From the NCBI GenBank assembly GCA_947625115.1, contig CANQND010000005.1, positions 1,891-65,890 on the forward strand: 64,000 nt of DNA. The letters are read 5' to 3'. This document shows positions 1-16,300 of this stretch, one piece after another. The notes beneath the pieces are model-generated. The model worked only from the letters and a program-made list of their open reading frames with translations, was not told where the DNA came from and ran no database searches. The DNA comes from an uncultured Clostridia bacterium (lineage in GTDB: Bacteria > Bacillota > Clostridia > Christensenellales > CAG-314). The translations under genes were made by a program, and so were the position numbers. How positions within the stretch are numbered: the stretch's first letter is position 1; the number at the start of each line of letters is the position of its first letter.

Positions 1-228
1 GGCGGTCTTTCGAAACCCAACGTTACTGACTTGCAAATTTACTCGGCTTTTCGTGAAGCCATAAGCGAGTACGAAGTGCATGGTTCTTTTACTGTGCAAA
101 TGACTGCAACTTACGAGGGTCAAACTTACACGTCAAGTACGAAAAGTATCGACGTTACTTTTGATGGTGACGCATTGTTCTTGCCTGTCAGTGAGTTGGC
201 ATTGGATCAAGACCACATTCTCGCATAG
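1..228 (+). CDS. Phage-element protein, partial (5' end outside window)
   Basis: Frame is open from base 1 to TAG at 226-228. Beta-rich; C-terminus LPVSELALDQDHILA resembles that of the next ORF. Confidence 0.65.
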   Translation, partial: GGLSKPNVTDLQIYSAFREAISEYEVHGSFTVQMTATYEGQTYTSSTKSIDVTFDGDALFLPVSELALDQDHILA

Positions 229-238
229 GGGGGCAATT

Positions 239-826
239 ATGGACAAGCAAGAAAAAATAATTACGATCGTGACGGTTGCGTTGCTTGTCCTCGCTGCCGT
301 CATAGTAGTGCTTGTGTGGGGCGCGTACAGCAATTGGTTCAAAACCGATTTCGAGTACTTGTACCTTACGTCGAATGGTGAACGTCTGCAACAATTTGAA
401 ACCTATCGCTTGGGCGATGTGCAGTTGGACGTTCACCAATTCGGCGGCAAAAGCGGTTTTTCCGTTCGTGTAGTGGCTCTTGCGGAAGAAGATTTCACTT
501 ACACCGTTGACGGCAAGTACTACAACTTTGTTGATGAGCTTGCATGCAAGGACGTAACCGAGGCTTTCGGCGTTGTTTCGGGCAAAAGAAGTTTTGTATT
601 GCATGCCCGTAGCGATATACTCGACATTTTGCAAGCTATCTATCCGAATAGCGTTGTCGCGCTCATTAGCGATCTCGATCAGCCGATACACTTTCATCTT
701 GTAGTCACGGACAAGGCGGCGAAACATAGCTTTGAACTGACGTTTTGCTGCAAAATGCCCGTGACTGACATCGAGATAGATCCTGATCACGTATTTACAA
801 GTGGAGGACTGTTATGCGTAAGTTAG
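239..826 (+). CDS. Phage-element membrane-anchored protein (N-terminal TM helix)
   Basis: GGGGGG RBS then ATG at 239 (MDKQEK). Hydrophobic IITIVTVALLVLAAVIVVLVWG; overlaps the next ORF. Confidence 0.75.
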   Translation: MDKQEKIITIVTVALLVLAAVIVVLVWGAYSNWFKTDFEYLYLTSNGERLQQFETYRLGDVQLDVHQFGGKSGFSVRVVALAEEDFTYTVDGKYYNFVDELACKDVTEAFGVVSGKRSFVLHARSDILDILQAIYPNSVVALISDLDQPIHFHLVVTDKAAKHSFELTFCCKMPVTDIEIDPDHVFTSGGLLCVS

Positions 827-2871
827 CAATTGTTTTATTGGCAGTATTGTTTGTTGTCGCTTTGGGCGGCGGATATTCCGCTGCCTTTGCTGATGACATT
901 AACGAGAATTTTGCCACCTCGTATGTGTTGGATGATCTCGCCGGGGCTAATATAGACGGCAAGGTTTTCAACGTTCAAGACTATCCGCAGGACGTCAAGG
1001 GCGAGTTGCGGTTGATTGCTTTTATGGAATATGCTTACAGCGAAAAGGAGGATCTGCGAGATTACTATGGGTTGTATTTCTACCTGTACAATCCCCGTGC
1101 AATTCAATTTACCGACGACGAGCGCAACAAGGTACAGATTGCCACGGAATACGAACAGCAGGGGAATGAGCTGATACCCACCAAATGGGAAAAGTTCAAC
1201 CTCAAACTGTGCAGCATATCCGCCGAGCGATTGTTTGTTAAGTTCAGAGTGGACAACGTTGCCGCTATCTACGAGCGAGTATCTCAACATCCTGAACTAC
1301 GTCGTTATGATATTTCGGGTTTGGAACTTGTAACTCCCAGTAGCACCAATGCCAAAGAGTACGGTGTTGGCGGAACGTGGCAATATTCAGGCTACGCCCG
1401 CGGCTGCGGCGATGACGTCTTGGAAAATACTTTGCAGTGCAACGCAAGCACCACGCAGGTTTTGCAGCTTGACGATCTGCACCATACATATTACCGTAAT
1501 TGGATAGAGGAGTACAAAAACGGGTTCAATAGTGACGGAATAATAGCCGGCAGAAAGGCGCAACAACTTAATTCGGTGTATTTCAGTGTTCCCAACTACT
1601 ATGTAGAGCAGTATAAACGTTTGTACAGCATTCAAGCGGAAACATACCGTTATTTGACGTCGCCGATTGTAGTCATTACAGATAAATATATTACAAGCAA
1701 TCAAGCCGACTCTTACTACAATCGGTTGCTTTCTCAGCGTAATCTTTATGACCCGTCTAAGCGGGATAATGCAATGTCTGCAACTTTGTATTGGGACTAC
1801 GGCTCTGGCTTGGTTCATTCTTCTAACGTTGGCAGAACTGCGTATAACTACTTCGACAGGGAGTACAGCGACACGTTGCACACTCTCGCTTGGGTTTTCC
1901 GTCAAGATAAGCGCGCTGATGAGGTGAGCGTTGAGTCTGCCGATCTGTTGAGGTATATGTCTGAGTACAGTGATTTATTTGATGATCATTCTATTCGTGG
2001 CAAATATGCTTCGGATTTATTTGCCGATCATTATTACAGTTATGGAATGAATTACAGTTCGTTCTCTAACGGTTACTACCCAATAGATTTGGACGTGTCC
2101 GGGGATAAAGATTTTGTCTTTACAGAAAGCGATAGTACGCAATCTGCTTGGGACAGGTTTTTCAACGGGCAAAACCATGTGGACGGCAAACCTTTTTCGC
2201 CCATAGTGGAAGTGAGCTACAACGATGTGAAAGGGTTGACCGACGACGAGCTTGCTCAGAAGTATTACATAGCTAAAGAGGACGCAACGGACTTTTACAA
2301 TTACGTGTGGAGTAACTCGGACAGGACGGTGTACTTGTTCCACTTTGCTCAGAGCGACTACTATTCCAATGACGTGCGTGCTTATGCAAAATTTTCAGTG
2401 TATGAGAATAACAATGTCGGTTTTGTTGCCCAAGAGGTTGCCTATCTTGATTTTGATATAATCTCTATGGGGTACGAAAACGATATGGGACATATTGAGA
2501 TAATTCCGGTTGTAAGCAATCCCGTTGACATAGTTTCTTCCATTGAGTCGGGCAGCCCTGTAACGGGTTGGGATAAGGTTTTGGACGAATTGGAGGACTT
2601 TTGGAACAGGGTCGAGAACTTTTTCAACCGTGTCGGAAACTTTGCCACAGAAAATTGGTGGCTTTTCGTCATACTCGGAGTGTTAATACTGTTCGGAGTT
2701 CTCAGTTATTTCTTCCCCGTACTGCGAGTAGTTTTCAAGTGGCTTTGGATAGGGCTTAAATGGCTGCTGAAAATCTTGTGGTGGATAGTTTCCGCCCCTG
2801 CGCGTCTGATCGTGCTGATTGCTAACAGCATAAAGAACCGAGCGGAGAGAAGATCCGGCACAAAGACATAA
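814..2871 (+). CDS. Large secreted, C-terminally membrane-anchored phage protein (pIII/spike-like adsorption protein candidate)
   Basis: GGAGG RBS; signal peptide MRKLAIVLLAVLFVVALGGGYSAAFA; Trp-rich C-terminal TM/amphipathic segments followed by a basic tail; located upstream of the ATPase. Confidence 0.7.
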   Translation: MRKLAIVLLAVLFVVALGGGYSAAFADDINENFATSYVLDDLAGANIDGKVFNVQDYPQDVKGELRLIAFMEYAYSEKEDLRDYYGLYFYLYNPRAIQFTDDERNKVQIATEYEQQGNELIPTKWEKFNLKLCSISAERLFVKFRVDNVAAIYERVSQHPELRRYDISGLELVTPSSTNAKEYGVGGTWQYSGYARGCGDDVLENTLQCNASTTQVLQLDDLHHTYYRNWIEEYKNGFNSDGIIAGRKAQQLNSVYFSVPNYYVEQYKRLYSIQAETYRYLTSPIVVITDKYITSNQADSYYNRLLSQRNLYDPSKRDNAMSATLYWDYGSGLVHSSNVGRTAYNYFDREYSDTLHTLAWVFRQDKRADEVSVESADLLRYMSEYSDLFDDHSIRGKYASDLFADHYYSYGMNYSSFSNGYYPIDLDVSGDKDFVFTESDSTQSAWDRFFNGQNHVDGKPFSPIVEVSYNDVKGLTDDELAQKYYIAKEDATDFYNYVWSNSDRTVYLFHFAQSDYYSNDVRAYAKFSVYENNNVGFVAQEVAYLDFDIISMGYENDMGHIEIIPVVSNPVDIVSSIESGSPVTGWDKVLDELEDFWNRVENFFNRVGNFATENWWLFVILGVLILFGVLSYFFPVLRVVFKWLWIGLKWLLKILWWIVSAPARLIVLIANSIKNRAERRSGTKT

Positions 2872-3014
2872 AAAAACACCCCGGACACTTGTCCAAGGTG
2901 TTGCGGAGCCTCACAGCCAGCCTTCTTGGGAAGGTACTTTCACTCTCATAAGCTACTCCGCTCGGTCGGTCTTAGCTTGCTTTCCGACTTTAGCCGTTGT
3001 ATGGCTACCGAGAG
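2870..3014 (-). ncRNA. Candidate structured antisense sRNA inside the prophage
   Basis: Minus-strand TTGACA(3044-3049)-17 bp-TAGAAT(3021-3026) with extended TG. Several stems, ending in hairpin AACACCTTGGAC/GTCCGGGGTGTT plus a U tract. Confidence 0.6.
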
Positions 3015-3048
3015 GATTTAATTCTAACATAAAAAGGAGATGTTGTCA

Positions 3049-3387
3049 ATGGCTAAAATTGTAAACAGGAAAAGAAAACCTAACGAAGCAAACCTCGCCG
3101 GCTTAATGGTTGTGGGGTCTGAGGTCGCGTGGGATAAGTTTCACAAACGTTGGCGTAAGGGAGTTTATGGCGCCGTGGACAAAGAATTGCCATTTATTAC
3201 CACTACCGTGCAGTCCAAGGACGGCACGCGGCGCAGAAAATTTGTAAATGACGTCACGGAACTGCCGAACGTCACGAAGGAGCGGGTAATGGCTTTCTTT
3301 GACAATAAGCAAAACGCCCAACGTAGCAAATGCTACCTTGTAGATAAGGCTCTTTACGACGAAATGCTTAACGGGCGCAAAAGATGA
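3049..3387 (+). CDS. Small basic phage-element protein, unknown function
   Basis: AAGGAG RBS at 3034-3039 favours ATG 3049 (MAKIVN). Stop overlaps the ATPase start (ATGA). Confidence 0.7.
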   Translation: MAKIVNRKRKPNEANLAGLMVVGSEVAWDKFHKRWRKGVYGAVDKELPFITTTVQSKDGTRRRKFVNDVTELPNVTKERVMAFFDNKQNAQRSKCYLVDKALYDEMLNGRKR

Positions 3388-4301
3388 TCACTATTATTTT
3401 CGGCAAACCGGGTGCGGGCAAGACGGCGTATTTAGTCAGTCAGATGTTACGGTTTCTTGGCAACAGCCGCGAGGCTTACGAGCTACTTTGGAATTGTCGG
3501 GACAGAGTGATCGCTCTGGATCAGCGCGGCTTGCAGTACACCGTTCCCACCACTCCGCCCGTCTACACCAATTTTCCCGTGTCGGCGCACGTTGGATACA
3601 ACAAATGGCGTAGTAGCTTATATGTAGACGGCTTTCACCTCGGTTTGGAAAACGACTTCGTACCAATTACCAATGTATTGCCGGGCGCGGTGATTGGCTT
3701 GACCGAGGTGCAACGGTACTACAATAGTAGAAACTCCAAGGACAGCAAAAAGGCTTTGCCCGATTGGGTCAGCAGGTTTTACGAGGAACACCGCCACTAC
3801 GGCTTGCAGATCTACTTGGACCTACAACGCATTGGGCTGTGCGACTTGAATATCCGAGAACTTGCAGGGCGCATTGTTGAGGTGTACGACCTGCAACACG
3901 AGGTTGATCGCCGCGGCAACATTCTCGCCTCGAAGTTTTCTCTCCGTTGCTGGGACACTCTTGCCGCCGCCGAACGTTACGTGGACAACGATAGCTTGAC
4001 CAACTTTGAGCACGAGGAGTATATCTTCGAGGGCAACGTGTTCGAGGCGTACACCTCGGCGTGTTATTTCGACGCTTTTTTGCCAAGCTGCGGCAGGGAC
4101 TTTTCCCTGCGTACCCACACCGAAGCGTTGCGGAATGACGCCACGTTGCAGTTAGAATTTTCAAAACAGATCTATCGGCAAAGTGCGCCACGCGGATTTT
4201 ATCCCGGCGAGGCGGAAGATCTCCGCAAAGAGTGGCTCAAAAATGGCAAAGACGAAACGTTGCAAGAATACATTTTGAGGACGGTTTATGGAACTACATA
4301 A
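3384..4301 (+). CDS. Zot-like / inovirus pI morphogenesis ATPase (no TM segment)
   Basis: N-terminal Walker A GKPGAGKT, VYTNF, Walker-B-like IGLTEVQRYY, HRHYG, LQR and DLNIR motifs typical of the Zot_N family. Confidence 0.85.
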   Translation: MITIIFGKPGAGKTAYLVSQMLRFLGNSREAYELLWNCRDRVIALDQRGLQYTVPTTPPVYTNFPVSAHVGYNKWRSSLYVDGFHLGLENDFVPITNVLPGAVIGLTEVQRYYNSRNSKDSKKALPDWVSRFYEEHRHYGLQIYLDLQRIGLCDLNIRELAGRIVEVYDLQHEVDRRGNILASKFSLRCWDTLAAAERYVDNDSLTNFEHEEYIFEGNVFEAYTSACYFDAFLPSCGRDFSLRTHTEALRNDATLQLEFSKQIYRQSAPRGFYPGEAEDLRKEWLKNGKDETLQEYILRTVYGTT

Positions 4302-4737
4302 CTTTTTAACTCAATACTACGAACTCTTTTCTGAGTTGGAGATCAACAAGGCGCAACTGCCCGAAGAGTTCTATGTGGTAAGCCGCAAGTTGTTACTTAG
4401 CCAATTTGAGCAAGCAACAACTACTTTTCTTGACGAGCAGGAGCTTCAATTTGCCGAGAAACGCTTCAAGCTGAAATTCGATGTCGCGAATTACACCCCG
4501 CGCCGTCGTTTAATCTTTTGGTGGAACCGTAAAGCAAAGGCTTTACTCAAACAATACCGCGCTGAATTAGAGCTTTATCTTTCGGAGATCTCCAAGGAAA
4601 CACGCGACACCAAGGCAGACAAGAACATTTTGGACGACCTGCCCGCGCAGAGTTCGATTTCAAGCCCCTCAACGTTGCCTGCGCCTACTACTGACTCAAC
4701 CGACCAAACACCTGCACCGCCTCCTACAACACCGTAG
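4288..4737 (+). CDS. Hypothetical phage-element protein with Pro/Thr-rich tail
   Basis: 149-aa ORF with GAGG RBS, overlapping the ATPase end. Confidence 0.65.
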   Translation: MELHNFLTQYYELFSELEINKAQLPEEFYVVSRKLLLSQFEQATTTFLDEQELQFAEKRFKLKFDVANYTPRRRLIFWWNRKAKALLKQYRAELELYLSEISKETRDTKADKNILDDLPAQSSISSPSTLPAPTTDSTDQTPAPPPTTP

Positions 4738-4740
4738 AGA

Positions 4741-4897
4741 GGCAGGTAAGGCTTCTGCGGCGATTGTCAAGAGAGACGGCGGGCTTTATGCTCACGCCGT
4801 AGGCGGGAGGGATAAATCCGTCGGCGACCTTGACAAGAAAGCCGTCAGAGGTTAGGCTCTCCGCTCGGGTGGACGCGTGCGTCCGCCCCTACCTGCC
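4741..4897 (+). other. Long imperfect palindrome, single-strand-origin/packaging-signal-like
   Basis: Nested pairs GGCAGGTA(4741)/TACCTGCC(4890), CTTCTGCGGC/GCCGTCAGAGG, TTGTCAAG(4764)/CTTGACAA(4829), GACGG/CCGTC and TTTAT/ATAAA in the gap before rep. Confidence 0.6.
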
Positions 4898-4995
4898 ACA
4901 CCAAACAAACACTTCACCGCAGCAGCAGCGCTGCAACGAGCGCAGCCGTGCGCGCGGCTGTGGAGGTGAGATCCTTTGGCCCGCGCAGCGGGCCG

Positions 4996-5024
4996 TGTGC
5001 CACCTACTTGATACTGGTGGCACA
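4996..5024 (+). other. Rolling-circle double-strand origin (nick-site hairpin)
   Basis: Perfect 9-bp stem TGTGCCACC/GGTGGCACA. The loop TACTTGATACT contains CTTGATA, the phiX174/pC194-type nick motif; ~70 bp upstream of rep. Confidence 0.8.
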
Positions 5025-5092
5025 ACATACAGGCAAATGGGCATTTTTGCCGTTGCCTATGGCATTTTTTACAAAAATTTCGAGGTGAAAAA

Positions 5093-6157
5093 ATGAATTA
5101 TCTGTATGACAAAGACACAGGCGAGAAGATCCCCAACGTTTATGAAAAGGACGGGCAAATTGTAACGATTGAGTATGAGTATTTCGACAGTGTGATTAGC
5201 ACAACGGAGTCCACCGGTGTTGAAGTTTTGAAGTTTGCTAAGCCGTTCCGAGTTCCCCGCCACGTGGCACTTGACGCCGAAATGTGTTCAGACTACTTTA
5301 CAAATTTTGAGTTTGCTGAGGCGGTAAGTACCCAGCGGTGGAAGTCGGTAGGCGGAACATTGGTTCCGACAGATCCAATGGTAAAAGTGGCAGATTTGTT
5401 GGCTTCGAGGCAACAAGCAGCAAGGGAGAGTAAAAGGCGATTCTACAACTACGCTTTGGGTGAAAACAATTGGCAGTACTTTTGTACATGGACTTTTGCC
5501 GATCCTCGCTGCCGTTCCGACAAAGATTTACTGTATGCTACATACAGCAAGTTTTTGGCGGTCATCCGCAAGTCTAACCCGGACGTAAAAGCGATTGCAA
5601 CGTACGAAGAGTTTGAGAAGGGCGGTTACCATATGCACGCATTGCTTGGCAATTGTTTGCTGCGTTTGACACCGGCACTGAACCCGCATACCGGCGAGTT
5701 TGTTTATTCCGAGTTTGGTAACCAAATATTTAACTGTATCGACTGGCAGGCGGGTTTCAGCACGGTGTGCTGTATTGTTCCGGGATCTACCAAGCAGCAA
5801 GTTGTTAATTACTTGGGAAAGTACTTGACCAAGAAATGCCCGGCTCCGTATCGTTGTAAACGGTTTTTCCATACTCTCAACTTGGACTACCGTGACTGTT
5901 ATATGTTCAACAGTCAAAATAGAAGTGATCCGGTTGTTCGTTTTCTTCTGAATGTCAAGGACGAACTTAACAACGGTGAGCGTCCCAATGTTATCCGAGA
6001 AATGGTTGACGCTTTTGATTTGGAACAGGTGAAGCGTAGTGAAACCGTTACTGTTTACCGCTCGAAAGTAGATATTGCCGGTTACTTGGACAACTATCCC
6101 GATGTGTTCACTCCGAAAAAAAAATTAGTGTCAAATTTAGTGTCAGAGCAAAAATAA
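5093..6157 (+). CDS. HUH rolling-circle replication initiator (Rep)
   Basis: Motif 1 FCTWTF, motif 2 YHMHALL, motif 3 YLGKYLTK (two Tyr); GAGGTG RBS. Confidence 0.88.
   Translation: MNYLYDKDTGEKIPNVYEKDGQIVTIEYEYFDSVISTTESTGVEVLKFAKPFRVPRHVALDAEMCSDYFTNFEFAEAVSTQRWKSVGGTLVPTDPMVKVADLLASRQQAARESKRRFYNYALGENNWQYFCTWTFADPRCRSDKDLLYATYSKFLAVIRKSNPDVKAIATYEEFEKGGYHMHALLGNCLLRLTPALNPHTGEFVYSEFGNQIFNCIDWQAGFSTVCCIVPGSTKQQVVNYLGKYLTKKCPAPYRCKRFFHTLNLDYRDCYMFNSQNRSDPVVRFLLNVKDELNNGERPNVIREMVDAFDLEQVKRSETVTVYRSKVDIAGYLDNYPDVFTPKKKLVSNLVSEQK
6125..6145 (+). repeat. Tandem TTAGTGTCA direct repeat, putative integrase arm-type sites
   Basis: TTAGTGTCA-AAT-TTAGTGTCA about 80 bp from the tRNA 3' end. Confidence 0.55.
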
Positions 6158-6222
6158 AGGGAAACACTTTTTAGGTGTTTCCTTTCATTTTGGGCTGTTT
6201 TCGCCTGTTTTTGCCCATTTTT

Positions 6223-6311
6223 TGGCGGAGAGAACAGGATTTGAACCTGCGGAGGCTGTTAACCTCGCACGCTTTCCAAGCGTGTGCCTTAAACCGCTCG
6301 ACCATCTCTCC
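6223..6311 (-). tRNA. tRNA-Ser(GGA)
   Basis: GGAGAGATGGTCGAGCGGTTTAAGGCACACGCTTGGAAAGCGTGCG...GGTTCAAATCCTGTTCTCTCCGCCA. Long variable arm, anticodon GGA, encoded CCA. Confidence 0.97.
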
Positions 6312-6371: not shown

Positions 6372-6437
6372 TAGAATTGAAGTAAAAATATCTTTTCGAC
6401 GACCGAAACGCATTTGAATGCGGTGGTTGCGGGGATT

Positions 6438-6604
6438 CCTCTTCCACCACTGCGTGGTCCCCCTCCCCCTCGTCGCCGCACGGCTTTGGTTAGCACCAAG
6501 CGCGTAAACGCGCTCGGTACCGCTAACAGTCGGCGGCTCCTCTTCCCACACAAGTATTAGCGTACTTGCACGGGGACCCATTTTGCTTATCGACGGGGAC
6601 GGTC
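6438..6604. repeat. Hairpin-rich intergenic element (REP/MITE-like, possibly nested)
   Basis: GC-rich stems ACCAC/GTGGT, GTTAGC/GCTAAC enclosing AGCGCG/CGCGCT, CAAGTA/TACTTG; no credible ORF. Confidence 0.4.
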
Positions 6605-6692
6605 TGTTTGGTGAACACGTCTTGCGACGAGGAGGGTATTTTCAACAACGGGGCTACTGTCTGAGGGAGCGGGATATGTTCAAGATATGTGC

Positions 6693-6817: not shown

Positions 6818-9800
6818 TTATGCGTCAACGCGCGTAAATTGTCCCGAATAGGGGTCCCCAGATGTGTTGCAAAGTTCCAGCGCGCCGCTCTCCAACTCCG
6901 CCAAATACAACTCCAAAGAAAATCCGCCCGTTTTTGTTATCTTAAACGTATATAAGTTTACACAAGTTCCGCTACCGCTGTAATAATAAGTATCTTCCGT
7001 AGTCGCTGTAACCGTTTCGGTAATTTTGTCGCCGCCGTCAACGGTGTAGGTGAGAGTAAGTTCTACCGCGCCGTCCTTGTTTGCAACAACAATTTCCGTA
7101 AATACATAGGTACTACTCACAAATCCACTACCCTTAAACGAAACGTTACCCTCGTACTTTGTTCCCTCAACGGGATCAACGGGCTGTGCGAGTTCGGGGT
7201 TTTCAAGAGTCATTTCGCCGATAGTGTCGCCACTAACCACAAAGCTCAACTTGGACTTGTCCGCTGTTCTGCCAACAGAAAAAGCTGTGGTTGTCTTATA
7301 GGGTTGGACAGACTTGTTCACAAAAGGATACAATTTCCACCAAACCGCAACGGTTGTTGAACCTTTCCAAGTGCTGAGATTTTGCGTCAAAAAAGTACCC
7401 GTACTATTACGATTGTCTGTTTTACTGAAAGTGTCAGTGTACTCTTGTCCGCCAAGAATAAATGTCACTGTCGCTTGCGTATCATCACCGTCTATCAAAG
7501 TTACAGACTTGAAAACAATCGTATACTCATTAGACGTAGGCGTGTACGAAACTTCGCCGACATATTTAAGCAGATTGCTATCCTCAGACGCGGAAGCGTC
7601 CTTTTGGAAAATTCTTGCAACCGCGTTGTCGTCGCCCGTTGCGGAGTAACCCGTAAGTTGATCCTTGCCCTCATTGAGAGTGAGAATAAACGTTGTTTTT
7701 GCTGACGACAAACTGTAAACTATTACCGCATACTTGTCAATACGATACAGCGTTGCAGGATTGTTTTGTGAGTTGATATTGTAGGTAACCACGCCCAACG
7801 CACTAATGGTAAAATAGGACGTACCGCTATCGGCGTTCCATTTGCCCACAAGGTCTTCTGCCGCAACATCTTTGAGTTCGGCAGTCTTGCTGAACACCGT
7901 GCCGTCAATGGAAATACTGTCGGCAGAAGTTACAACAATACGAAACGTGTCAACGCTATCGGGGTCGAGGTACTTGTTTACCGCTTCCAATGTCAACGGG
8001 TGGAGATATTTTCCGTCCTCAATAGCGGAGCCAACAACGTCACTGCCGCTTGCACCCGCCTCGGAGATCACGATTTCTTTGTTGCCGCTCTTCCAAACAC
8101 CGCAAATATCGGCAAGGGATACAGATGCTCCCTCTTCCCAAATAGCATACAACGGCAACGTGAAGCCACCCTCGCTTTCTACAAGATATTGCTGATAGGT
8201 ACCATAATTTACGTTCGTGATAGAACCATTATTGATAATGATAGTACCTTGCTCATCGTAGGACCAACCCTTGAAAGTGTGACCTGCATAGGTAAACGGA
8301 CACACCGCGGGTAACAGAGAGCCGATGGAGGCTTCCATTGTAAAGGTGATATCTTTTTGAACTTCACCTGTGGCTTCGCCGGGGTTCAATGCCAACGTTA
8401 TTGTTGCTTTTGTCCAAGAAGCCATTATGCGAATGTCTTCGTCGGGCATTTGGTAAGTTGCGTCGGGTTGCAAGTCCGTTGCTATTTTCTTCCAACCTTG
8501 GTCTGTGTTGTGTTGAATTGTCCACCCTGCAAAAGTGTAACCTTGGCGTTTCCAAGTACATTGCGGAAGAGTGATCGTTGCACCCGCCTCATAGTTACCT
8601 GCGCCCTCGGGTTCGCTTCCCGAAAAGCCAGCCTCACTATTAGCACCTCTGTAATACTCTACCGAGTGACCCGTGGCGGGAGGGATAACCTCTCCGCTAT
8701 CTTTTGTGAAAACGGCAGAACATTCGCTACCCAAAAGGTCAATGGTAATAGTCAATTGACCCTCTTCCGCGACAACGGTCAGCGTGTAAGCGTCCTCAAA
8801 TGTTCCCGTACCTACGTTACCGTCCCAAGTAAGCGTGTAAGTATCTTGCCACTCTGCACTAATCAGTTTGAGAGTGTCGCCGTTAAGCTCGGCACTTGTG
8901 AAATTGTAACTTTCTCCGTAAGAGTCTACCAAATCGGGCATTCCGCTCGGATTGCTGTACTTTCCGTCAGCGTCAGCGGGTTTGGTTGACGGTGCTGTCC
9001 AAACACATACTACCGTAACGTCACTGTTAAGAGTATAATCGTTGATAGTTTCGCTCGTGTAGGATTGTCCCAGAATATTGTAGGACAAGGGGTTATTTCT
9101 CTCCGAATCCATACACCAATAAGCAATATAGTCCGCACTAAGGTTACTACCCTCTTCTAAGTAGATAACGAAATCGTTCCCTGCCTTGTCGGAATTTTGG
9201 AAAGTTACCGCCACAAGGTCTACCTCAAAGGTATAATTTTGACTGTCGCTTTCATTGTTGAACACAAGAACGAGCTTGCGCCCTTGCAATGTACCCGAAA
9301 CAAACGTTATTCCGCAACCATCGTTCATTTCGTCGTAGCCAACAACCGTAATTTTGCCGTCGGCTGAAATGGTATATTCAAAGTAGTATTCGGTATAACC
9401 GCCGTCAAACATATCACCTTGAAATTGCGCACAAGAATAGTCTTCCTCAAACAATTGCAACAACAACATTGTGTCGTCGTCTTGTGTGTGAAGAACGAAC
9501 GCGTTAAACGGTTCTGTTGTAAACGGTTTCCCCGTGGGGGGGGTGACTTCACCCTCCCACACACATTCGATTTCGGTATCTTCTGCGGGTACTATGTAGC
9601 TTCCAAAGTCTTCCGCGTCAGATTGCACGCCGCCTACCTTGTAGAACGGGGGACAATTGTCTTGTTCATCGTACGTATATTGCGTTATGTCAACAGCCGT
9701 ACCTGCGGGATAATACACGTTTTTGTCCGTGCCTTTGTTATCGATGTTTTTAAGAGTGATTTGCACCAAATTGCCCGCAAACGTGTATTGAGTTGTGTTT

Positions 9801-12800
9801 CCTGACGTGGTAAAGCTGAATACCAATTTCAACGTACGTCCGTGCAACGAACCCGATACAAATGCCAAGCCTACCGAACCATCAAAATCGGCAACGGTTA
9901 CTGTGCCGTCGGTTGCAATCGAATAGGTAAATCCGCCGGATATGCCCCATTCTCCCATGCCGACACCGCCGACAAGTTGAACCATACCGGACATTCCCTC
10001 TTGTTCTTCCGAGAACAACATTACCGCACCCGAAACATCGCCGTCGCTCAACACCATTGCGGCGTCGATAAGTTCTGTCGTGAACGGAGCTTCTGTGCTT
10101 TCGTTCCATACGGCAACATAATGCGTTGTTGCGGTGATAGTGACTGTGGAACCAACAGCGTGCAACGTTTTGGGTTCCGCCTCGTCGGCTTTGTCGTTCC
10201 AACCGCCGAAAGTGCCGCCGACATAGGGGTGATCGTCCGCATCGGGGAAAGTTACTTCCAAAGAGCCGTCGTCGTCTTCGTCCCAAATAACGGTCGCGTC
10301 GGTGCCGTCAAGATAGTCGAAAGTAGCGGCAACACGGAATTTTGCCGTGAGCGTGATTTCTTCGGTTATGGGTGTGCTACTAATATCAAACACCTCGCCG
10401 TCCTTTAACCAAGCGTAGAACAGCTTGCCTTGGGGGGCTTTGGATTCGATACCGTCGTAAGTGAAGAGCGTACCGTACTCTACTTCAACGGTTTCGGTTT
10501 GATCGTTGATAGAAAGAGTAACAGTGATGTTGTACACGTAGTCGCCGAAAATATATTTTTCGCCGCCGACAGTAGCAAGACCGCTGAATCCTATAAAATA
10601 TCCATATTGCGATACTGCCGTCAATTCAAAGACGTCGCTGCCGAAAGTAAAGCCGACAGTAGCAGTTTCTTCTTCTGCCGACGTACTCTTGACGGTGTAC
10701 GTGCCTTGTACGGGGTCACTTGCCGCCTTGAAAGTTGCCTTTCCGAAACCGTCCAAAGTCAATGTGGCCTTTTCGTCCTTGGAGGTATAAGTTCCCTCGT
10801 AACCGTCAGAGAACACGGCTTTGCCGTTTTCGGTTTTGAATATCATTTGTGAGGAATAGGTTGTGACGGTGTACAAACCCGTGCCGCCATCGTAGGTGTA
10901 GGGATATATCGAAGAATAGCTTTCGGAATAGAAAATTTCCACATAGCCGTCATCGCGCACCACTACCTTTGTGTATCTGCCGCCCTCATCTACTTGGAAA
11001 GTCTGTTGGAATACGGCAACAATTGTAACGTCGCCTTGTACGGTTACCGTTGTTCCGCTGATCAAATCTTCATAGTCCTCGCGTTTCCAACCGAGGAAAG
11101 TCCAACCGTCTTTTTCGTAGGTACATTCGGGCAATTCAATGGGTTCTCCCGCAACGCCTTGTTTGGCGTCAATTTTGTCGGTGTGACCGTCAACGCTGAA
11201 AGTAACGGTTACGCGTTTTGCCCAAATTGCATAAAGCGTGAGATTGTCCTTAACTTCGGTACCATCAAAATCGAAATAAGTTGTTGAATCACTACTTATT
11301 CCCCAACCCTTGAATTCGTAACCGTCGCGGGTGGGTTGTTGTGCGGGACGAGTGGCGTGTCCGCCGTAGTCGAACGTTTGCGGTTCGGGCAAGTTGCTTA
11401 CGCCATCGCCGTTAGCCTCAAATGTTACCGTTACGGTAGAACGCTCTTCCCAATGAGCAACAAATGTTGTATCTTCTTTGATAGTGTAGGGGAACGTGAC
11501 TTTTTGATTGTCTACAAACCAACCCGTAAACGCGTGTTTATCCCATTCGGGCTTGGTGGGTTCATATATGCTGTTGCCGGGATACACTTGTTGAGGACTC
11601 GGAGCAACGCCGTCGGGACATTCGCCAAGTTCAAACGTTGCCGTTACTTGTTCCGCCCTGTGGAATGTTTTATCAAACGAATAATCCCAAGTGGCTTCCG
11701 CATGCATTGTAAACTCTTCGAGAGAGTTCAACGTAAGAGTGACTGTATAAGCCCCTATCGTGAAAGAAACAACCGTTTTTCCGTCCACAACAGAAGTGCC
11801 TGTGGGGGAAAGATCGCCGCTGTAATCGTAGTTAAGCTCGTGGAAAGAGATTGTGCCGTCTTCGCTTACTTTGAGCAAGTCGTATGTGCTAAGAAGCTCA
11901 AATGTTTCGCCGCAAGACCAAATGCCCTCAAAGTCGGCGAGATCCAAACCTTGCTCTTCTTCGGCAAAAGTCAACTCCAATATTCCGCCTTCTTCGGTAA
12001 CTTCGGTGTAGCCCTCGCCTGCGGCTATCGCGGCTCCCTCTGCCGTCAAATCAAGCGGTTCGTCATTGAAAGTTGCGCTTTCCACTTCGTTGCTACTTGA
12101 ACGAGCAGCCACTAACCAATAGATAGGTGCACCAACGTTGAGATAGAACAACTCTTCCTCTTCGGGGCCACCAACGATGATGATTTCTGCCATTTCACCT
12201 GTGATCTCAACCGCGTCGTCGCCGACTTCCAAAGCGATATACACAAGCGTACCCTCGATACTGCCGTAGCCGACAGGTTCGTCACTTTGGAAAACAGTGA
12301 TTGCACCCTCTTCAATTGAGTAGGCATATTCGCCTTTCAATTCCAAAGAGTCGGAGTCGCCAAGTTCGGAAATAAACAAAGTGAAATAGTCGCCGCTTGA
12401 TTCTGTGGTGAATATTACAGCATAGCCTTGTTCCAAATCGACAATTGCGCCGTCGAAAGGTTCGGTGGTGAAAGGTTCGTCCTCTCCCGAGCCGTCCTCG
12501 GTGTATTGCGCAGTGTAGGTTACGTCGCCTGCGGGCATTTGCTTTTGAGAACCGGCAGGAGCGTAATCACCATTGTTGTCTATCCAAACTTCAAATATCC
12601 AGCCATCTTCCGCATCGGGTCCGTCGGGCAACGTGTAGGTTGCGCCCTTTGCCAACTGTTGAGTTGCAGGTACGGTTGCGCCCTCTGCCGCGTGATCGCC
12701 GAGTTCGTATTTAAGCGTGTACTCGGTGACGGTGGAACCTGTTTGTTTCCACTGTGCAGTGAGAGTTTTTTCGCTTGCGGGCATTGTGTAGGTTGCGCCT

Positions 12801-13288
12801 GCTTGATAGACGGTTGTGCCGTCGCTCCAACCGTTAAACTCCCAGCCATCTTCCGCATCGGGTCCTGCGGGCAACGTGTAGGTTGCACCCTCTGCCAACT
12901 GTTGAGTTGCAGGTACGGTTGCGCCCTCTGCCGCGTGATCGCCGAGTTCGTATTTAAGCGTGTACTTGGTGACGTCGGAACCCGCATCGGTCCATTGCGC
13001 CGTGAAAGTTACGTCTGCAACCAGCGTGTACTCGGCACCCGCTTGATAGACGGTTGTGCCGTCGCTCCAACCTGCAAAGTTGTGGTTTGCATACGTAAAC
13101 GTGTTACTTGGGAGGTGTATTTTTTCACCGACGTTTGCCGTGATAGGCTCGGGGGCGTTCCCCGTTGCGCCATCGCCTCCCACAAAGGTTGCGGTTGCGG
13201 CTTGGTCGCAGGCAACAAGCGAAAGACTTGCTACCAATGCAACAACAAGAACCAGACAAAGCAACCATCGCGTTGTTCTTTTTGTCAT
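6818..13288 (-). CDS. Large surface lipoprotein with InlB B-repeat/Listeria-Bacteroides-type repeats
   Basis: GGAGGG RBS before MTKRTT; lipobox LSLVAC; many FxGW...TxxAxW repeats; acidic; ~2156 aa. Confidence 0.85.
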   Translation of the reverse strand: MTKRTTRWLLCLVLVVALVASLSLVACDQAATATFVGGDGATGNAPEPITANVGEKIHLPSNTFTYANHNFAGWSDGTTVYQAGAEYTLVADVTFTAQWTDAGSDVTKYTLKYELGDHAAEGATVPATQQLAEGATYTLPAGPDAEDGWEFNGWSDGTTVYQAGATYTMPASEKTLTAQWKQTGSTVTEYTLKYELGDHAAEGATVPATQQLAKGATYTLPDGPDAEDGWIFEVWIDNNGDYAPAGSQKQMPAGDVTYTAQYTEDGSGEDEPFTTEPFDGAIVDLEQGYAVIFTTESSGDYFTLFISELGDSDSLELKGEYAYSIEEGAITVFQSDEPVGYGSIEGTLVYIALEVGDDAVEITGEMAEIIIVGGPEEEELFYLNVGAPIYWLVAARSSSNEVESATFNDEPLDLTAEGAAIAAGEGYTEVTEEGGILELTFAEEEQGLDLADFEGIWSCGETFELLSTYDLLKVSEDGTISFHELNYDYSGDLSPTGTSVVDGKTVVSFTIGAYTVTLTLNSLEEFTMHAEATWDYSFDKTFHRAEQVTATFELGECPDGVAPSPQQVYPGNSIYEPTKPEWDKHAFTGWFVDNQKVTFPYTIKEDTTFVAHWEERSTVTVTFEANGDGVSNLPEPQTFDYGGHATRPAQQPTRDGYEFKGWGISSDSTTYFDFDGTEVKDNLTLYAIWAKRVTVTFSVDGHTDKIDAKQGVAGEPIELPECTYEKDGWTFLGWKREDYEDLISGTTVTVQGDVTIVAVFQQTFQVDEGGRYTKVVVRDDGYVEIFYSESYSSIYPYTYDGGTGLYTVTTYSSQMIFKTENGKAVFSDGYEGTYTSKDEKATLTLDGFGKATFKAASDPVQGTYTVKSTSAEEETATVGFTFGSDVFELTAVSQYGYFIGFSGLATVGGEKYIFGDYVYNITVTLSINDQTETVEVEYGTLFTYDGIESKAPQGKLFYAWLKDGEVFDISSTPITEEITLTAKFRVAATFDYLDGTDATVIWDEDDDGSLEVTFPDADDHPYVGGTFGGWNDKADEAEPKTLHAVGSTVTITATTHYVAVWNESTEAPFTTELIDAAMVLSDGDVSGAVMLFSEEQEGMSGMVQLVGGVGMGEWGISGGFTYSIATDGTVTVADFDGSVGLAFVSGSLHGRTLKLVFSFTTSGNTTQYTFAGNLVQITLKNIDNKGTDKNVYYPAGTAVDITQYTYDEQDNCPPFYKVGGVQSDAEDFGSYIVPAEDTEIECVWEGEVTPPTGKPFTTEPFNAFVLHTQDDDTMLLLQLFEEDYSCAQFQGDMFDGGYTEYYFEYTISADGKITVVGYDEMNDGCGITFVSGTLQGRKLVLVFNNESDSQNYTFEVDLVAVTFQNSDKAGNDFVIYLEEGSNLSADYIAYWCMDSERNNPLSYNILGQSYTSETINDYTLNSDVTVVCVWTAPSTKPADADGKYSNPSGMPDLVDSYGESYNFTSAELNGDTLKLISAEWQDTYTLTWDGNVGTGTFEDAYTLTVVAEEGQLTITIDLLGSECSAVFTKDSGEVIPPATGHSVEYYRGANSEAGFSGSEPEGAGNYEAGATITLPQCTWKRQGYTFAGWTIQHNTDQGWKKIATDLQPDATYQMPDEDIRIMASWTKATITLALNPGEATGEVQKDITFTMEASIGSLLPAVCPFTYAGHTFKGWSYDEQGTIIINNGSITNVNYGTYQQYLVESEGGFTLPLYAIWEEGASVSLADICGVWKSGNKEIVISEAGASGSDVVGSAIEDGKYLHPLTLEAVNKYLDPDSVDTFRIVVTSADSISIDGTVFSKTAELKDVAAEDLVGKWNADSGTSYFTISALGVVTYNINSQNNPATLYRIDKYAVIVYSLSSAKTTFILTLNEGKDQLTGYSATGDDNAVARIFQKDASASEDSNLLKYVGEVSYTPTSNEYTIVFKSVTLIDGDDTQATVTFILGGQEYTDTFSKTDNRNSTGTFLTQNLSTWKGSTTVAVWWKLYPFVNKSVQPYKTTTAFSVGRTADKSKLSFVVSGDTIGEMTLENPELAQPVDPVEGTKYEGNVSFKGSGFVSSTYVFTEIVVANKDGAVELTLTYTVDGGDKITETVTATTEDTYYYSGSGTCVNLYTFKITKTGGFSLELYLAELESGALELCNTSGDPYSGQFTRVDA
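12599..12974 (-). repeat. Near-identical intragenic direct repeat (period 243 bp)
   Basis: 12599-12731 vs 12842-12974 both encode YTLKYELGDHAAEGATVPATQQLAxGATYTLPxGPDAEDGW. Confidence 0.9.
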
Positions 13289-13345
13289 TATTTTTCCCTC
13301 CAAAATAGATTTTTGTTTTTTTATTAACTCAACGAGTAGCCCCCG

Positions 13346-16300
13346 TCAGGAGAGCTGCTCGTAGGTAAACGTGTTATTGTCGAAATTCAGGGTCAAAACG
13401 TACACTCCGTCAAAATCGCTCGTTTCGCCGCTTGGGGCGCGAACAGTTACTGTGAGTACGTTGCCGTGAGTTTCGGTTATTTGAGCGGCAATTTGCAAAC
13501 TGCCGTTGGACGTCGGGAAAGAAATGCTCAATCTCAACACTTTGCCGTCGGTTGATACCAACGCCGTTATGAGCAAGCCGTCCGACGAATGAAGATAACA
13601 GTAAGAAGCAAATTTCGTCCACTCGTAAGTGAAAGAGTCGCCGTCTACGTGTATGATAATTTCATACTTGACAGCTTTCCAATTGATTGTCCAATCGATT
13701 GTCCACGTGTAGGTGTTTTCGCCTATCTTTGTGAGAGCCCAACCATAAGAATCAACTGTTTGCAAACCGTTGCCGTACGGACCCGCAATGCCGTCTACAT
13801 TTTTCAGGTTGCCGACAGCGTGTACATAATTGCCCTCATAAATGGTAAGCGATGAACCGTCTGCCGCCGTGTAGGTGTGTTCCTCAACTACTTTGCTGAC
13901 CGTGTAGTTAAAGGTGAGGTTTCCGTTGTTGTTGAACAACGTCAATTGATAGACGTTGCCGTCGTAGGTGAACTGCATACGGTAGTTGACTATCTGTACG
14001 ACGACGGCGTTGCCGTTGAACTCGCCCTCTTGCGTGCCTGCCGTAACGGTGAGGCGTTGCGTTGCAGACGAAACATAGGAGTAGGTGAGTTGTGTGCCGT
14101 ACTTAACAAATGAGTAAGGCGAATCGTCGTACTGCAAGCCCGTGAGCCAACCGTTGGAGTTGACGACGAGGGTCTGCTTGCTATCGGAGTAGTTGCCCGT
14201 GTAGCTGTTGTACTCGAACCAGAACACTTGGAGAGTGCTGTCGTTTTGCCAACGGTACAAGCCGCCGAGCGCGCCCTCGCCGAAAGAGGCGTTGTCGCCG
14301 AGAACAAGGGTTATCGCAAAGTTTTCAACGCTGTACCAAGTTTGTTGTTCGGCGTTGGTGCTTACGCGCAGGTATCTGAGATAGGGCTGCCACGTGCTGT
14401 TTTGAGCAAAGCCGACGCCCGCTTCGTAACTGTTGACGTAAATGCGTACTTGGGAGCCGTAAAACGGTGTTTGACCGAGTTCGGGCGGGGTTGAGCCGCG
14501 CAAAACAATGATGAGTTGATGTTGCTCGAAAGAGCTTTCGTCCGCGTTGGGAGTGACAGCGCACAGAGAAAACGCCATTGCGCCCACCAAGGCGAGATCT
14601 GCACCCGCGGTGAAACTCACCAGACCGAAGCAACGAATAAACGCGTTGTCGCCGATAGACGTGAGTCGGTCAAAGGAGAGTTCGGTAAGAGAAACGCATT
14701 GGTAAAACGCTTCTGCACCGATAGTTTCAAGATTGTTTCCCGTTACGCGCGCCAACGCTTCGCAACCGTAAAACGCACGCGCACCCACCGATACAACGTT
14801 GTTGAGGTTGACGGCGACAATGTAGTCCAAGGTGGCAAACACGCCGTCGGCAATGGAGATGACGTCATCGGGAATATCTACCGTTACGGAAGAGGGGTTC
14901 TCGTCGGTGTTGTTGTAGGACACAAGAACGCCGTCCACCACTTCAAACAAAGGTTTATTTGCCTGTTCGGCATTGCTTGTTACAAACGCCGCGTAACCGT
15001 TAGGCTGACTTGGCGTTGCCGCCGCCCAAGTGGGGGCTGTGCGGTAAGCCTGTTCGCTGCCGTCGGGGACAAATATCTTGAAATTGGAACCCTTGATCCA
15101 ACGGAACACGTCCTCGCCCAACTCGGGAGGAGTTGCGCCGAGGAAGTAAACGGCTTTGAGCGTGTTAGCACCGCCCGAACCCGTGCCGTTTTCAAAGGCG
15201 TGATCGCCTATGCGAATCAGGCTTGCGGGGAACGTTACCGACGTGAGTGATTTGTCTTTGAACACGTCTGCCGCTATTTCCGTTACGCCCTCGGGAATGA
15301 CTATCACCGACGAATTGCCGAGATATTGCGTTACAACGTGGTCTACAATGACGAGATTTTCTTCAAAAACGGTGTAACTGCCGTACTCCTCGTCGGCGGC
15401 GTAGGTGATTTCGATAGCCAACTCGCCGAGTTGCTCGTTGTAGAACGTGATGACAACAACAGCCGTTGCGCCATGCTCTTCGATAGTGTAACTGCCCAAC
15501 TCGCCGTCCTGGTCCGCTTCGGCAGTCAAATACTGAGCCATACCGTAGCCGTCAAGCACTATTTGCGGATACTCGCTTTGTTCGCTTTGCAAATACACGC
15601 CGTTTTCGTCGCCGCGTTTAAGGAAAATGTAGTACGATTCACCATCGTGCGGCTCCGTACGCCACAGGAAGTAGAATTGAACTTCGTCGTTTACCACGAA
15701 CTCGTATTGGAGATAGCCCGAATCGGGGTCGAGGAAGTAGTTTCCGCGAGCAAGCTCTATCAGCTCGTTTTCGCCGCTATCGGCGGCACCGATCTCGTAC
15801 AAAATGCCGTTGCCGTAACCGTCAAGATACAGTGCTTCGTCTTGGAAGTCGCCGTTACGCACAAGTTGCCAATACACATTGCCCTCGACGCCGAATTCCA
15901 TAAAGTAGCCGTCCACGTCCGAATCGACCGCGGACGTTTCCTTGACAACCTTGAAATACGTGCGTACCACTTTGTCGGGTTGAGAGGGGTGGAAATAGGA
16001 CACGTAGTAATCGCCGAGTTTGGTAAGTTCGTATTTTGTTATGACGTAGTACGCAACGCGACCGTCGGGAGAGGAAGCGTCCACTTCGCACAAAGTACCC
16101 GTCTTGTAGCCGTCAAATGCCAAAATGCGCGTTCCGAACGCGTCGTACAGATATTCGTACTCTTTGTAAGTGCCAACAAGATCCTCGTCGCGGTATTGGA
16201 AGAGGTTCTTTTCCATACTTTCCGCGTCGATACGAGCGTAGTAGACCGTTCCGTCCACGTTGAAATCCATATCCGCGCCGATAAGGTAGTTATCGACATA

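Follow-up and report, generated by a model that had tools for sequence, protein, structure and literature searches.

What kind of element has integrated at a serine tRNA gene of a gut Clostridia bacterium, and what kind of particle could it make, if its only recognizable proteins are a filamentous-phage-type ATPase and a rolling-circle replication protein and no small coat gene is in sight? The locus that raises this question is the first part of a 64,000-nucleotide (nt) stretch of DNA, hereafter the window, which corresponds to positions 1,891 to 65,890 of contig CANQND010000005.1 (C5) in the assembly GCA_947625115.1 (G000; 1.57 Mb, 83 contigs, 92.8% complete) of an uncultured Clostridia bacterium; positions below are those of the window unless a contig is named. 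We consider it likely that positions 1–6311 hold the right-hand part (6.2 kb) of a temperate element with a total length of about 8–10 kb, which belongs to a stand-alone-Zot, inovirus-like clade of gut Firmicutes and sits at the 3′ end of tRNA-Ser(GGA) in a Clostridia host from the rabbit gut. The core of this view, an inovirus-like rolling-circle prophage at tRNA-Ser, had been put forward in an initial annotation made from the sequence alone and is supported by the analyses described here; the element would probably be excised, pass through a single-stranded DNA (ssDNA) state and be released without lysis. Elements of this type are already known, and the locus is a well-supported yet expected kind of prophage; its unusual point is a structural module that has no small coat gene.

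The visible part of the element contains nine open reading frames (ORFs), all of them open and of full length when compared with relatives. Seven of the nine proteins (p97a, p97b, p400, p196, p685, p115 and p149) have no useful match in Pfam, PHROGs or NCBIfam and their relatives fare little better; the genome is small and its genes are mostly uncharacterized. The order of the genes, Rep, OB-fold protein, small basic protein, membrane proteins and Zot, mirrors that of the Ff phages and thereby supports an inovirus-like reading. The marker protein is a stand-alone, 305-amino-acid (aa) Zot/pI-type morphogenesis ATPase encoded at 3384–4301 on the plus strand, with a Walker A motif (GKPGAGKT) at residues 7–14. 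It matches PF05707 (31.3 bits, cut-off 20.3; E 1.8e-7) and phrog_197, ‘Zot-like toxin’ (3.3e-12), and a Kyte-Doolittle scan found no hydrophobic 19-mer and hence no membrane helix, in agreement with what had been predicted for it. A conjugative origin of the ATPase had been named as the alternative; both profile collections place it in the Zot family, and Pfam searches with the nine proteins returned no relaxase, coupling protein, VirB4 or FtsK family at E ≤ 0.1. When a profile was built from eight Zot proteins, it retrieved 812 representative clusters at E ≤ 1e-3 (127 of them at E ≤ 1e-30), and the best 150 of the 812 are all 113–313 aa long, that is, stand-alone ATPase domains. On its two sides the ATPase gene overlaps with p115 (3040–3387, plus strand), which encodes a basic protein (isoelectric point 10.1), has homologues at the same position in several relatives and has its stop within the Zot start, and with p149 (4288–4737, plus strand), which overlaps the Zot stop, encodes a variable C-terminal tail rich in Pro, Ser and Thr and is present beside Zot in nearly all relatives. 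A model of Zot and p149 as a complex scored 0.00, which is no evidence either way.

The second informative protein is Rep (354 aa; 5093–6157, plus strand), a rolling-circle replication protein that scores 29.9 bits against PF23343 (cut-off 27.8). Its motifs FxTxTF, HxHA and YxxxYxxK are invariant among six aligned Reps, which belong to two subtypes and are 26–82% identical to the window protein, and we therefore assign it as a two-tyrosine HUH enzyme, as the initial annotation had done; a comparison with Protein Data Bank (PDB) sequences gave nothing at E ≤ 1. Relatives of this Rep are encoded by 17 circular faecal inovirus records and by 27 small plasmids of staphylococci, enterococci, Macrococcus and Mammaliicoccus. 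In one relative of the element (G024; L026, 6785–9133), the place of the PF23343 Rep is taken by a Rep_1 protein (PF01446) with an IS91-type zinc-binding domain, which indicates that replication modules are swapped within the family; a DNA methyltransferase (phrog_757) is also found in this relative.

Ahead of Rep, a candidate double-strand origin is formed by a hairpin at 4997–5023 (plus strand), whose 8-bp stem carries in its loop the CTTGATA motif (5007–5013) already noticed as a likely nick site. A scan of all fetched loci recovered a perfect hairpin 5′ of Rep in 27 loci from 12 distinct genomes, with a loop consensus of C[TC][TC]GATA and five variants of the stem (GTGCCACC, GTGCTACC, GTGTGTCC, GTGTGACC and TGGTACCA). 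Each variant keeps all eight pairs, every change being matched on the opposite arm, and this pattern is good comparative evidence that points to a functional origin at the hairpin. We take the cut by Rep to fall within CTTGATA, by analogy with pC194/phiX174-type origins. The hairpin lies in a 356-nt non-coding stretch between p149 and Rep, and as ssDNA the region 4735–5100 folds with −94 kcal/mol (z −7.39), a value reached by 0 of 100 shuffles. The first 160 nt of this region form a long imperfect hairpin (4741–4897, plus strand) and include, at 4871–4884, the GC palindrome that had been described as sso-like. They are conserved even between elements of unlike Rep subtype, and a consensus fold from five elements has 55 pairs, seven of them with compensatory change; the hairpin is thus a candidate minus-strand origin or packaging signal. 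In addition, a terminator-like hairpin (6160–6182) separates Rep from the tRNA.

The right-hand boundary is, as first proposed, a tRNA-Ser gene: an intact tRNA-Ser(GGA) at 6223–6311 on the minus strand (Rfam tRNA, 53 bits), whose 3′ end faces the element and whose 3′ 58 nt (6223–6280, minus strand) form the predicted att core, duplicated in the relative G029. The left-hand boundary had been placed at window position 1, which is not where the element starts: it runs on leftwards through the remaining 1,890 nt of the contig, which hold a perfect sigma-70 consensus promoter (contig positions 8–36), p97a, p97b and the start of p400, and in which neither an integrase nor a second att copy nor a small membrane ORF was found. 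Both a coat gene and an integrase had been expected to the left of the window. The former is present neither in the 1,890 nt nor in G029, and the latter, together with tRNA duplicates and a repressor, is seen on leftward extension in the relatives and not in G000 itself.

Among these relatives, G029 is complete and gives a picture of the missing part. Its element of 8,634 bp (7398–16031), with Zot and Rep 84% and 82% identical to those of the window, is bounded by perfect 58-bp repeats of the tRNA-Ser 3′ end and reads, from the tRNA-Ser(GGA) at the Rep end, Rep, p147, Zot, a 472-aa anchored protein, p188, p388, p99b and p99a, followed on the far side and on the opposite strand by a helix-turn-helix (HTH) protein of the HTH_3 family (1.1e-13) and a tyrosine integrase (PF00589, 5.8e-19), with the second att copy just beyond the integrase. 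Eight loci of relatives were fetched, and four more of them (G033, G031, G027 and G024) show att-type direct repeats at a tRNA, each with an integrase and an HTH gene; these repeats measure 30 bp at tRNA-Met, 192 nt (87.5%) at tRNA-Pro and 25 bp and 173 nt at two tRNA-Val genes, and the elements at tRNA-Met, -Pro and -Val are 11.2–12.8 kb long. The remaining three loci run into a contig end; tRNA-Ser(GGA) adjoins Rep in G018 and G035. Partial copies of the tRNA-Ser(GGA) 3′ end, 55–61 nt long, occur in G029, G032 (two), G028, G014 and G018. Those beside integrases in G032, G018 and G028 are 98–100% identical, and in G032:C35, G018:C61 and G028:C10 the att copy is followed by an integrase, an HTH gene and relatives of p97a, p97b and p400; around the partial copies in G032:C20 and G014:C26 none of the proteins of the element was found in the stretch fetched. 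To the right of the tRNA the flanks differ from species to species, and no empty site could be found by synteny. Close to one end of contig C2 of G000 there is a 21-nt copy of a tRNA-Ser 3′ end, which belongs to a repeat-rich tRNA-Ser(TGA) region and was not linked to the element. This region (C2:77849–80300) also contains a 76-nt duplicate of the downstream flank of its tRNA, and such duplicates may be scars of other integrations.

Two observations bear on how the left end came to be missing from G000. The first base of C5 coincides with the end of contig C81 (2,792 nt), an 85–90% identical variant of contig positions 1–2804, and the shared end base suggests an assembly break at the point where the two variants converge. 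The shortest contig kept in the bin measures 2,584 nt, more than the ~1.9 kb expected of a repressor–integrase–att piece, and we therefore read the missing end as an assembly gap. C81 (L006) itself represents a second variant of the left part, with p97a, p97b, p400 and p196; the two variants have similar depth in the source-like run and could reflect a second prophage or a second strain. No close copy of the G029-type integrase, or of the integrase or repressor of the type found in G032:C24, is present in the G000 assembly.

The stretch was also found in 13 listed public runs of four studies, mostly of rabbit gut, and the four best runs (0.81–0.93 of words) are from one sample, probably the source. 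Four runs were aligned to the stretch, as contigs only. Contigs in two studies abut the tRNA 3′ end (contig position 8109) and continue leftwards with the same unlike sequence, a contig of a third study (run X7) leaves the reference exactly 58 nt into the tRNA (contig position 8170), and contigs of two runs extend 0.95–1.1 kb to the left of contig position 1. The loose ends at 8109, 8113 and 8170 fit the att bounds and are compatible with an empty site as well as with attL or attP. A 16-nt motif taken from one loose end does not occur in the G000 assembly.

Within the host family, relatives of the Zot protein are encoded by 21 of 82 genomes, counting G000, and they occur in five of 18 genera. 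A species-level genome collection contains 17 relatives from rabbit, goat, roe deer, mouse and chicken gut, whose records are mostly titled uncultured Clostridia, Christensenellaceae or Oscillospiraceae, which bears out the proposal of a Clostridia host. Unlikely host labels, Akkermansia muciniphila (two contigs) and Corallococcus sp. (one contig), were seen for L037, L042 and L041; as the remaining hosts are all of the Clostridia type, these contigs are possibly mis-binned or mislabelled. Only two of 50,697 phage records contain a Zot match, the best being bajarodino virus 12.

The structural module lies to the left of Zot and encodes three membrane proteins, in line with the initial annotation, which had listed a 685-aa protein with signal peptide and membrane anchor and further membrane proteins; the latter are now seen to be p196 and the tail of p400. 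The p400 gene (C5:916–2118, plus strand; its last 75 codons at window positions 1–228) encodes a 400-aa protein with one N-terminal membrane helix, which has homologues in relatives; a bajarodino virus 12 protein matches it over 394 aa with 22% identity (E 8e-7). Adhesin-type repeats (Flg_new and Big_2) are found in the p400-like proteins of relatives; the Flg_new repeats occur in those of G027, G024 and G050. Next, p196 (195 aa; 239–826, plus strand) starts with an ATG at 239 after a G-rich ribosome site and also has an N-terminal membrane helix; 17 homologues were found among 5.8 billion proteins. In an AlphaFold2 model (pLDDT 80.9), p196 consists of a helix (residues 2–38) and an Ig-like beta domain (42–172), and the best fold matches, which reach Z 7.3, are to capsid-associated proteins of phages, to pilins and to S-layer domains, a resemblance that is probably generic to Ig-like domains. 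The third protein, p685 (685 aa; 814–2871, plus strand), has a signal-peptide-like leader, a large variable ectodomain and a C-terminal membrane anchor, and a hydropathy scan located its hydrophobic segments at the N-terminal leader, 610–643 and 650–670. Its conservation is limited to residues ~578–684 (52–59% in G029, G033 and G031); it has no match in Pfam, PHROGs, NCBIfam, PDB sequences or INPHARED, and a single weak, unnamed cluster in the Atlas (score 0.78). Because it is placed before Zot and has a leader and an anchor, p685 may be the positional analogue of the adsorption (pIII-type) protein.

Short proteins with a single helix are described as a feature specific to inovirus genomes by Roux et al. 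(2019; PMC6813254), and the G000 element encodes no short structural protein of this kind (30–90 aa, single transmembrane domain). No small single-helix coat ORF was found in the complete relative G029 either. A comparison of the position between the p400-like gene and the gene for the anchored protein, occupied by p196 in the window, shows how the family differs at this point. In G000, G029, G033, G031 and both G032 copies the slot holds p196, in five further loci it holds an N-anchored protein of 176–206 aa, and in G027 and G024 it holds an ORF of 48–49 aa. The two short proteins are 35% identical to each other; they begin with polar residues, contain one hydrophobic helix and end in a basic tail, a form that we take to resemble a leaderless inovirus coat. 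Their presence ties the family to the filamentous phages, and the comparison as a whole argues that most members of the family lack a small coat gene and that its absence here is not an effect of the window edge. Because it occupies the coat slot, p196 is the likeliest candidate for the main structural protein. A more far-reaching idea, to which we give only tentative credence, is that this is a lineage without a coat protein of about 50 aa and one helix, in which the particle is built from the ~190-aa protein, with its N-terminal helix and an Ig-like domain pointing outwards, the 400-aa N-anchored protein and two basic soluble proteins. If this were the case, one outcome would be a filament decorated with domains and with its coat polarity reversed; the other would be a non-filamentous particle with a pI-type ATPase as its motor.

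The two remaining proteins are encoded to the left of the window, in contig positions 1–1890. The AlphaFold model of p97a (89–97 aa; pLDDT 78.3) is a five-stranded, all-beta structure, and almost all of its Foldseek matches are OB-fold ssDNA binders (PriB–ssDNA, small single-stranded DNA-binding proteins and SsbB) with TM values of 0.44–0.56 and E values of 0.015–0.1. Among these, PriB–ssDNA gave a TM value of 0.50 and a small single-stranded DNA-binding protein one of 0.56; the VIA Z of 6.9–7.8 is middling, and a p97a profile retrieved a single PDB sequence (E 0.96). On the strength of the modelled fold, p97a is likely to bind ssDNA. Its neighbour, the p97b ORF, encodes a very basic protein of 97 aa (isoelectric point 10.5).

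These elements can be assembled into a provisional model. Judging from relatives, the gene for a tyrosine integrase would lie immediately past the contig end, and its product would recombine a 58-bp phage site identical to the tRNA 3′ end, and the tRNA would stay intact on integration. A divergent HTH repressor may act on the promoter at contig positions 8–36, from which a single rightward operon would be transcribed. After excision, Rep would nick the CTTGATA loop and initiate rolling-circle synthesis of the coding strand; p97a would bind the resulting ssDNA, and the folded region at 4741–4897 would serve as minus-strand origin or packaging signal. Assembly would take place at the membrane, where the cytoplasmic Zot protein, with p115 and p149, may thread the DNA past p400, p196 and p685. 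As no lysis gene was recognized among the proteins, the particle would probably leave the cell without lysis.

Several observations weigh against the view that the locus is an inovirus-like prophage. Within contig positions 1–8112 there is no ORF of at least 20 aa with a hydrophobic helix outside the large genes, the structural proteins match no known phage family, and the OB-fold and Ig-like fold matches score in the middle range. The G000 assembly has no second att copy, and its nearest integrase is only 27–31% identical to the integrases of the relatives; a circle junction could not have appeared in the run data, which consist of contigs, given that the left end is missing. The G028 copy is a truncated remnant that ends after p400, so decay does occur in the family. 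The 21 spacers of the CRISPR array of G000 gave no match to the element or its relatives, a single 15-nt match being to an unrelated locus. Finally, IMG/VR yielded a single, distant relative in an alignment scan and none in a single-protein scan.

Three other explanations were considered. The absent integrase side and the truncated G028 remnant would suit a decaying or left-truncated cryptic prophage in G000 that has lost the ability to excise. We regard this as unlikely, as the nine ORFs are intact relative to their homologues, contigs from other runs reach about 1 kb further left, the end of the contig, in the operator/promoter region, shares its base with C81 and so points to a break in assembly, and the ~1.9-kb piece falls below the shortest contig of the bin. 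The absent coat gene, on the other hand, can be explained in two ways that concern the nature of the element. A temperate ssDNA element with a membrane-bounded or pleomorphic particle, in which p685 is the spike, p400 and p196 belong to the envelope and p97b and p115 condense the DNA, would account for structural candidates that are all large and membrane-anchored, for the two very basic soluble proteins and for the 176–206-aa N-anchored protein that most surveyed relatives have instead of a small coat. However, the Zot/pI protein has so far been a marker of filamentous phages, as described by Roux et al. (PMC6813254), two relatives have a small coat-like ORF in exactly the p196 slot, and no protein was matched to a known envelope or fusion protein, with no comparison aimed at the pleolipovirus- or plasmavirus-like families having been made; such a particle appears improbable to us.

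The other way of explaining the absent coat is to dispense with the virion altogether. In this case, the locus would be an integrative rolling-circle element, such as an integrated plasmid or mobilizable island, and Zot and the surface proteins would be used for cell-to-cell transfer or adhesion. The kinship of Rep with plasmids of Gram-positive cocci and the adhesin-type repeats in p400-like proteins of relatives would fit this. However, the Rep is equally kin to the circular faecal virus records, the conjugation families listed above were not found, and both the gene order and the OB-fold protein suit a phage, all of which makes a virion-less element very unlikely. An inovirus-like prophage remains the reading that we prefer.

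Some further features of the neighbourhood deserve mention. The spacer between p685 and p115 contains, as a lead only, a candidate antisense small RNA of about 145 nt (2872–3016, minus strand), with a minus-strand promoter-like site (11 of 12 positions) followed by a minus-strand terminator-like hairpin; it folds with −50.4 kcal/mol (z −2.31) and has no match in Rfam. The spacer (2872–3049, or C5:4762–4939) recurs in contigs C55 and C80. The C55 copy (2701–2882) is 86% identical and lies between unrelated genes. In C80 (L003, 985–2811), a CRISPR array that starts at 1350 and comprises 22 copies of a 36-nt repeat abuts a 350-nt fragment that is ~90% identical to the 3′ end of p685 and the spacer downstream; this fragment could be a prophage remnant beside the array or an assembly chimera. 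On the other side of the tRNA, and adjoining it, a gene at 6818–13303 on the minus strand encodes a secreted protein of 2,161 aa with at least seven Flg_new (Listeria-Bacteroides) repeats. Between the tRNA and this large surface-protein gene, at ~6425–6625, lies an interspersed repeat of about 200 nt, which has 52 matches on 27 contigs of the G000 genome.

Characterization of the filamentous phages of Gram-positive anaerobes has scarcely begun, and yet roughly one in four genomes of a single gut Clostridia family contains the family described here. It provides a set of comparable prophages whose att sites lie at four types of tRNA, whose Reps are of two types and whose origin hairpin is well defined. 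Its structural module has no known relatives, and in this module the classical coat gene is replaced. Isolated particles would show how a pI-type machine builds a virion in a cell that lacks an outer membrane, with no secretin and possibly with no coat of the pVIII type.

With the well-studied Ff phages (M13/f1/fd), the element shares a rolling-circle Rep, an ssDNA-binding protein, membrane-inserted structural proteins, a pI ATPase, the absence of lysis genes and a similar gene order. Unlike the element, Ff phages have a pI with a membrane and a periplasmic part, a secretin, a 50-aa helical coat protein and another type of Rep, and they do not integrate. The two-tyrosine YxxxY motif and the CTTGATA nick site are those of phiX174 gpA and pC194-type origins, whereas at the protein level these Reps resemble the window Rep in their motifs only. 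The closest phage record is bajarodino virus 12 (PQ006185.1), which is filed under Inoviridae and represents a circular sequence of 9,828 nt from rodent faeces; no paper was found for its name in the literature searched. Its Zot protein is 37.6% identical over 241 aa, and it likewise encodes a p400 relative, a protein with signal peptide and anchor beside Zot and, on the opposite strand, an integrase and a repressor, and has no annotated small coat; it differs in that its genome gives no tblastn match to the window Rep at E ≤ 1 and has no relatives of p196, p97a and p149.

In the survey by Roux et al. (2019; PMC6813254), pI is given as the only conserved inovirus marker and prophages are described with att sites in tRNAs, as found here in relatives of the element. 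Closer still are the gut inoviruses targeted by CRISPR spacers of Firmicutes and termed ‘Clade-1’ by Sugimoto et al. (2021; PMC8530359), which by their account all have a stand-alone Zot domain and include one tyrosine recombinase at a tRNA locus and one unusual HUH Rep. Like the element, these viruses have a Zot protein without the C-terminal membrane part, and Clostridiales or Firmicutes are their predicted hosts; their genomes measure 5.6–9.4 kb. The 56 Clade-1 genomes were chosen for a recognizable major coat protein, whereas the element has none, and the likeness is one of description (PMC8530359). The same applies to the inoviruses of Enterocloster, which Burckhardt et al. (2023; PMC10061712) describe as secreted and as tested by quantitative PCR and transmission electron microscopy: they belong to another host family and, like the element at tRNA-Ser(GGA), are prophages of gut Clostridia with a Zot-like pI protein.

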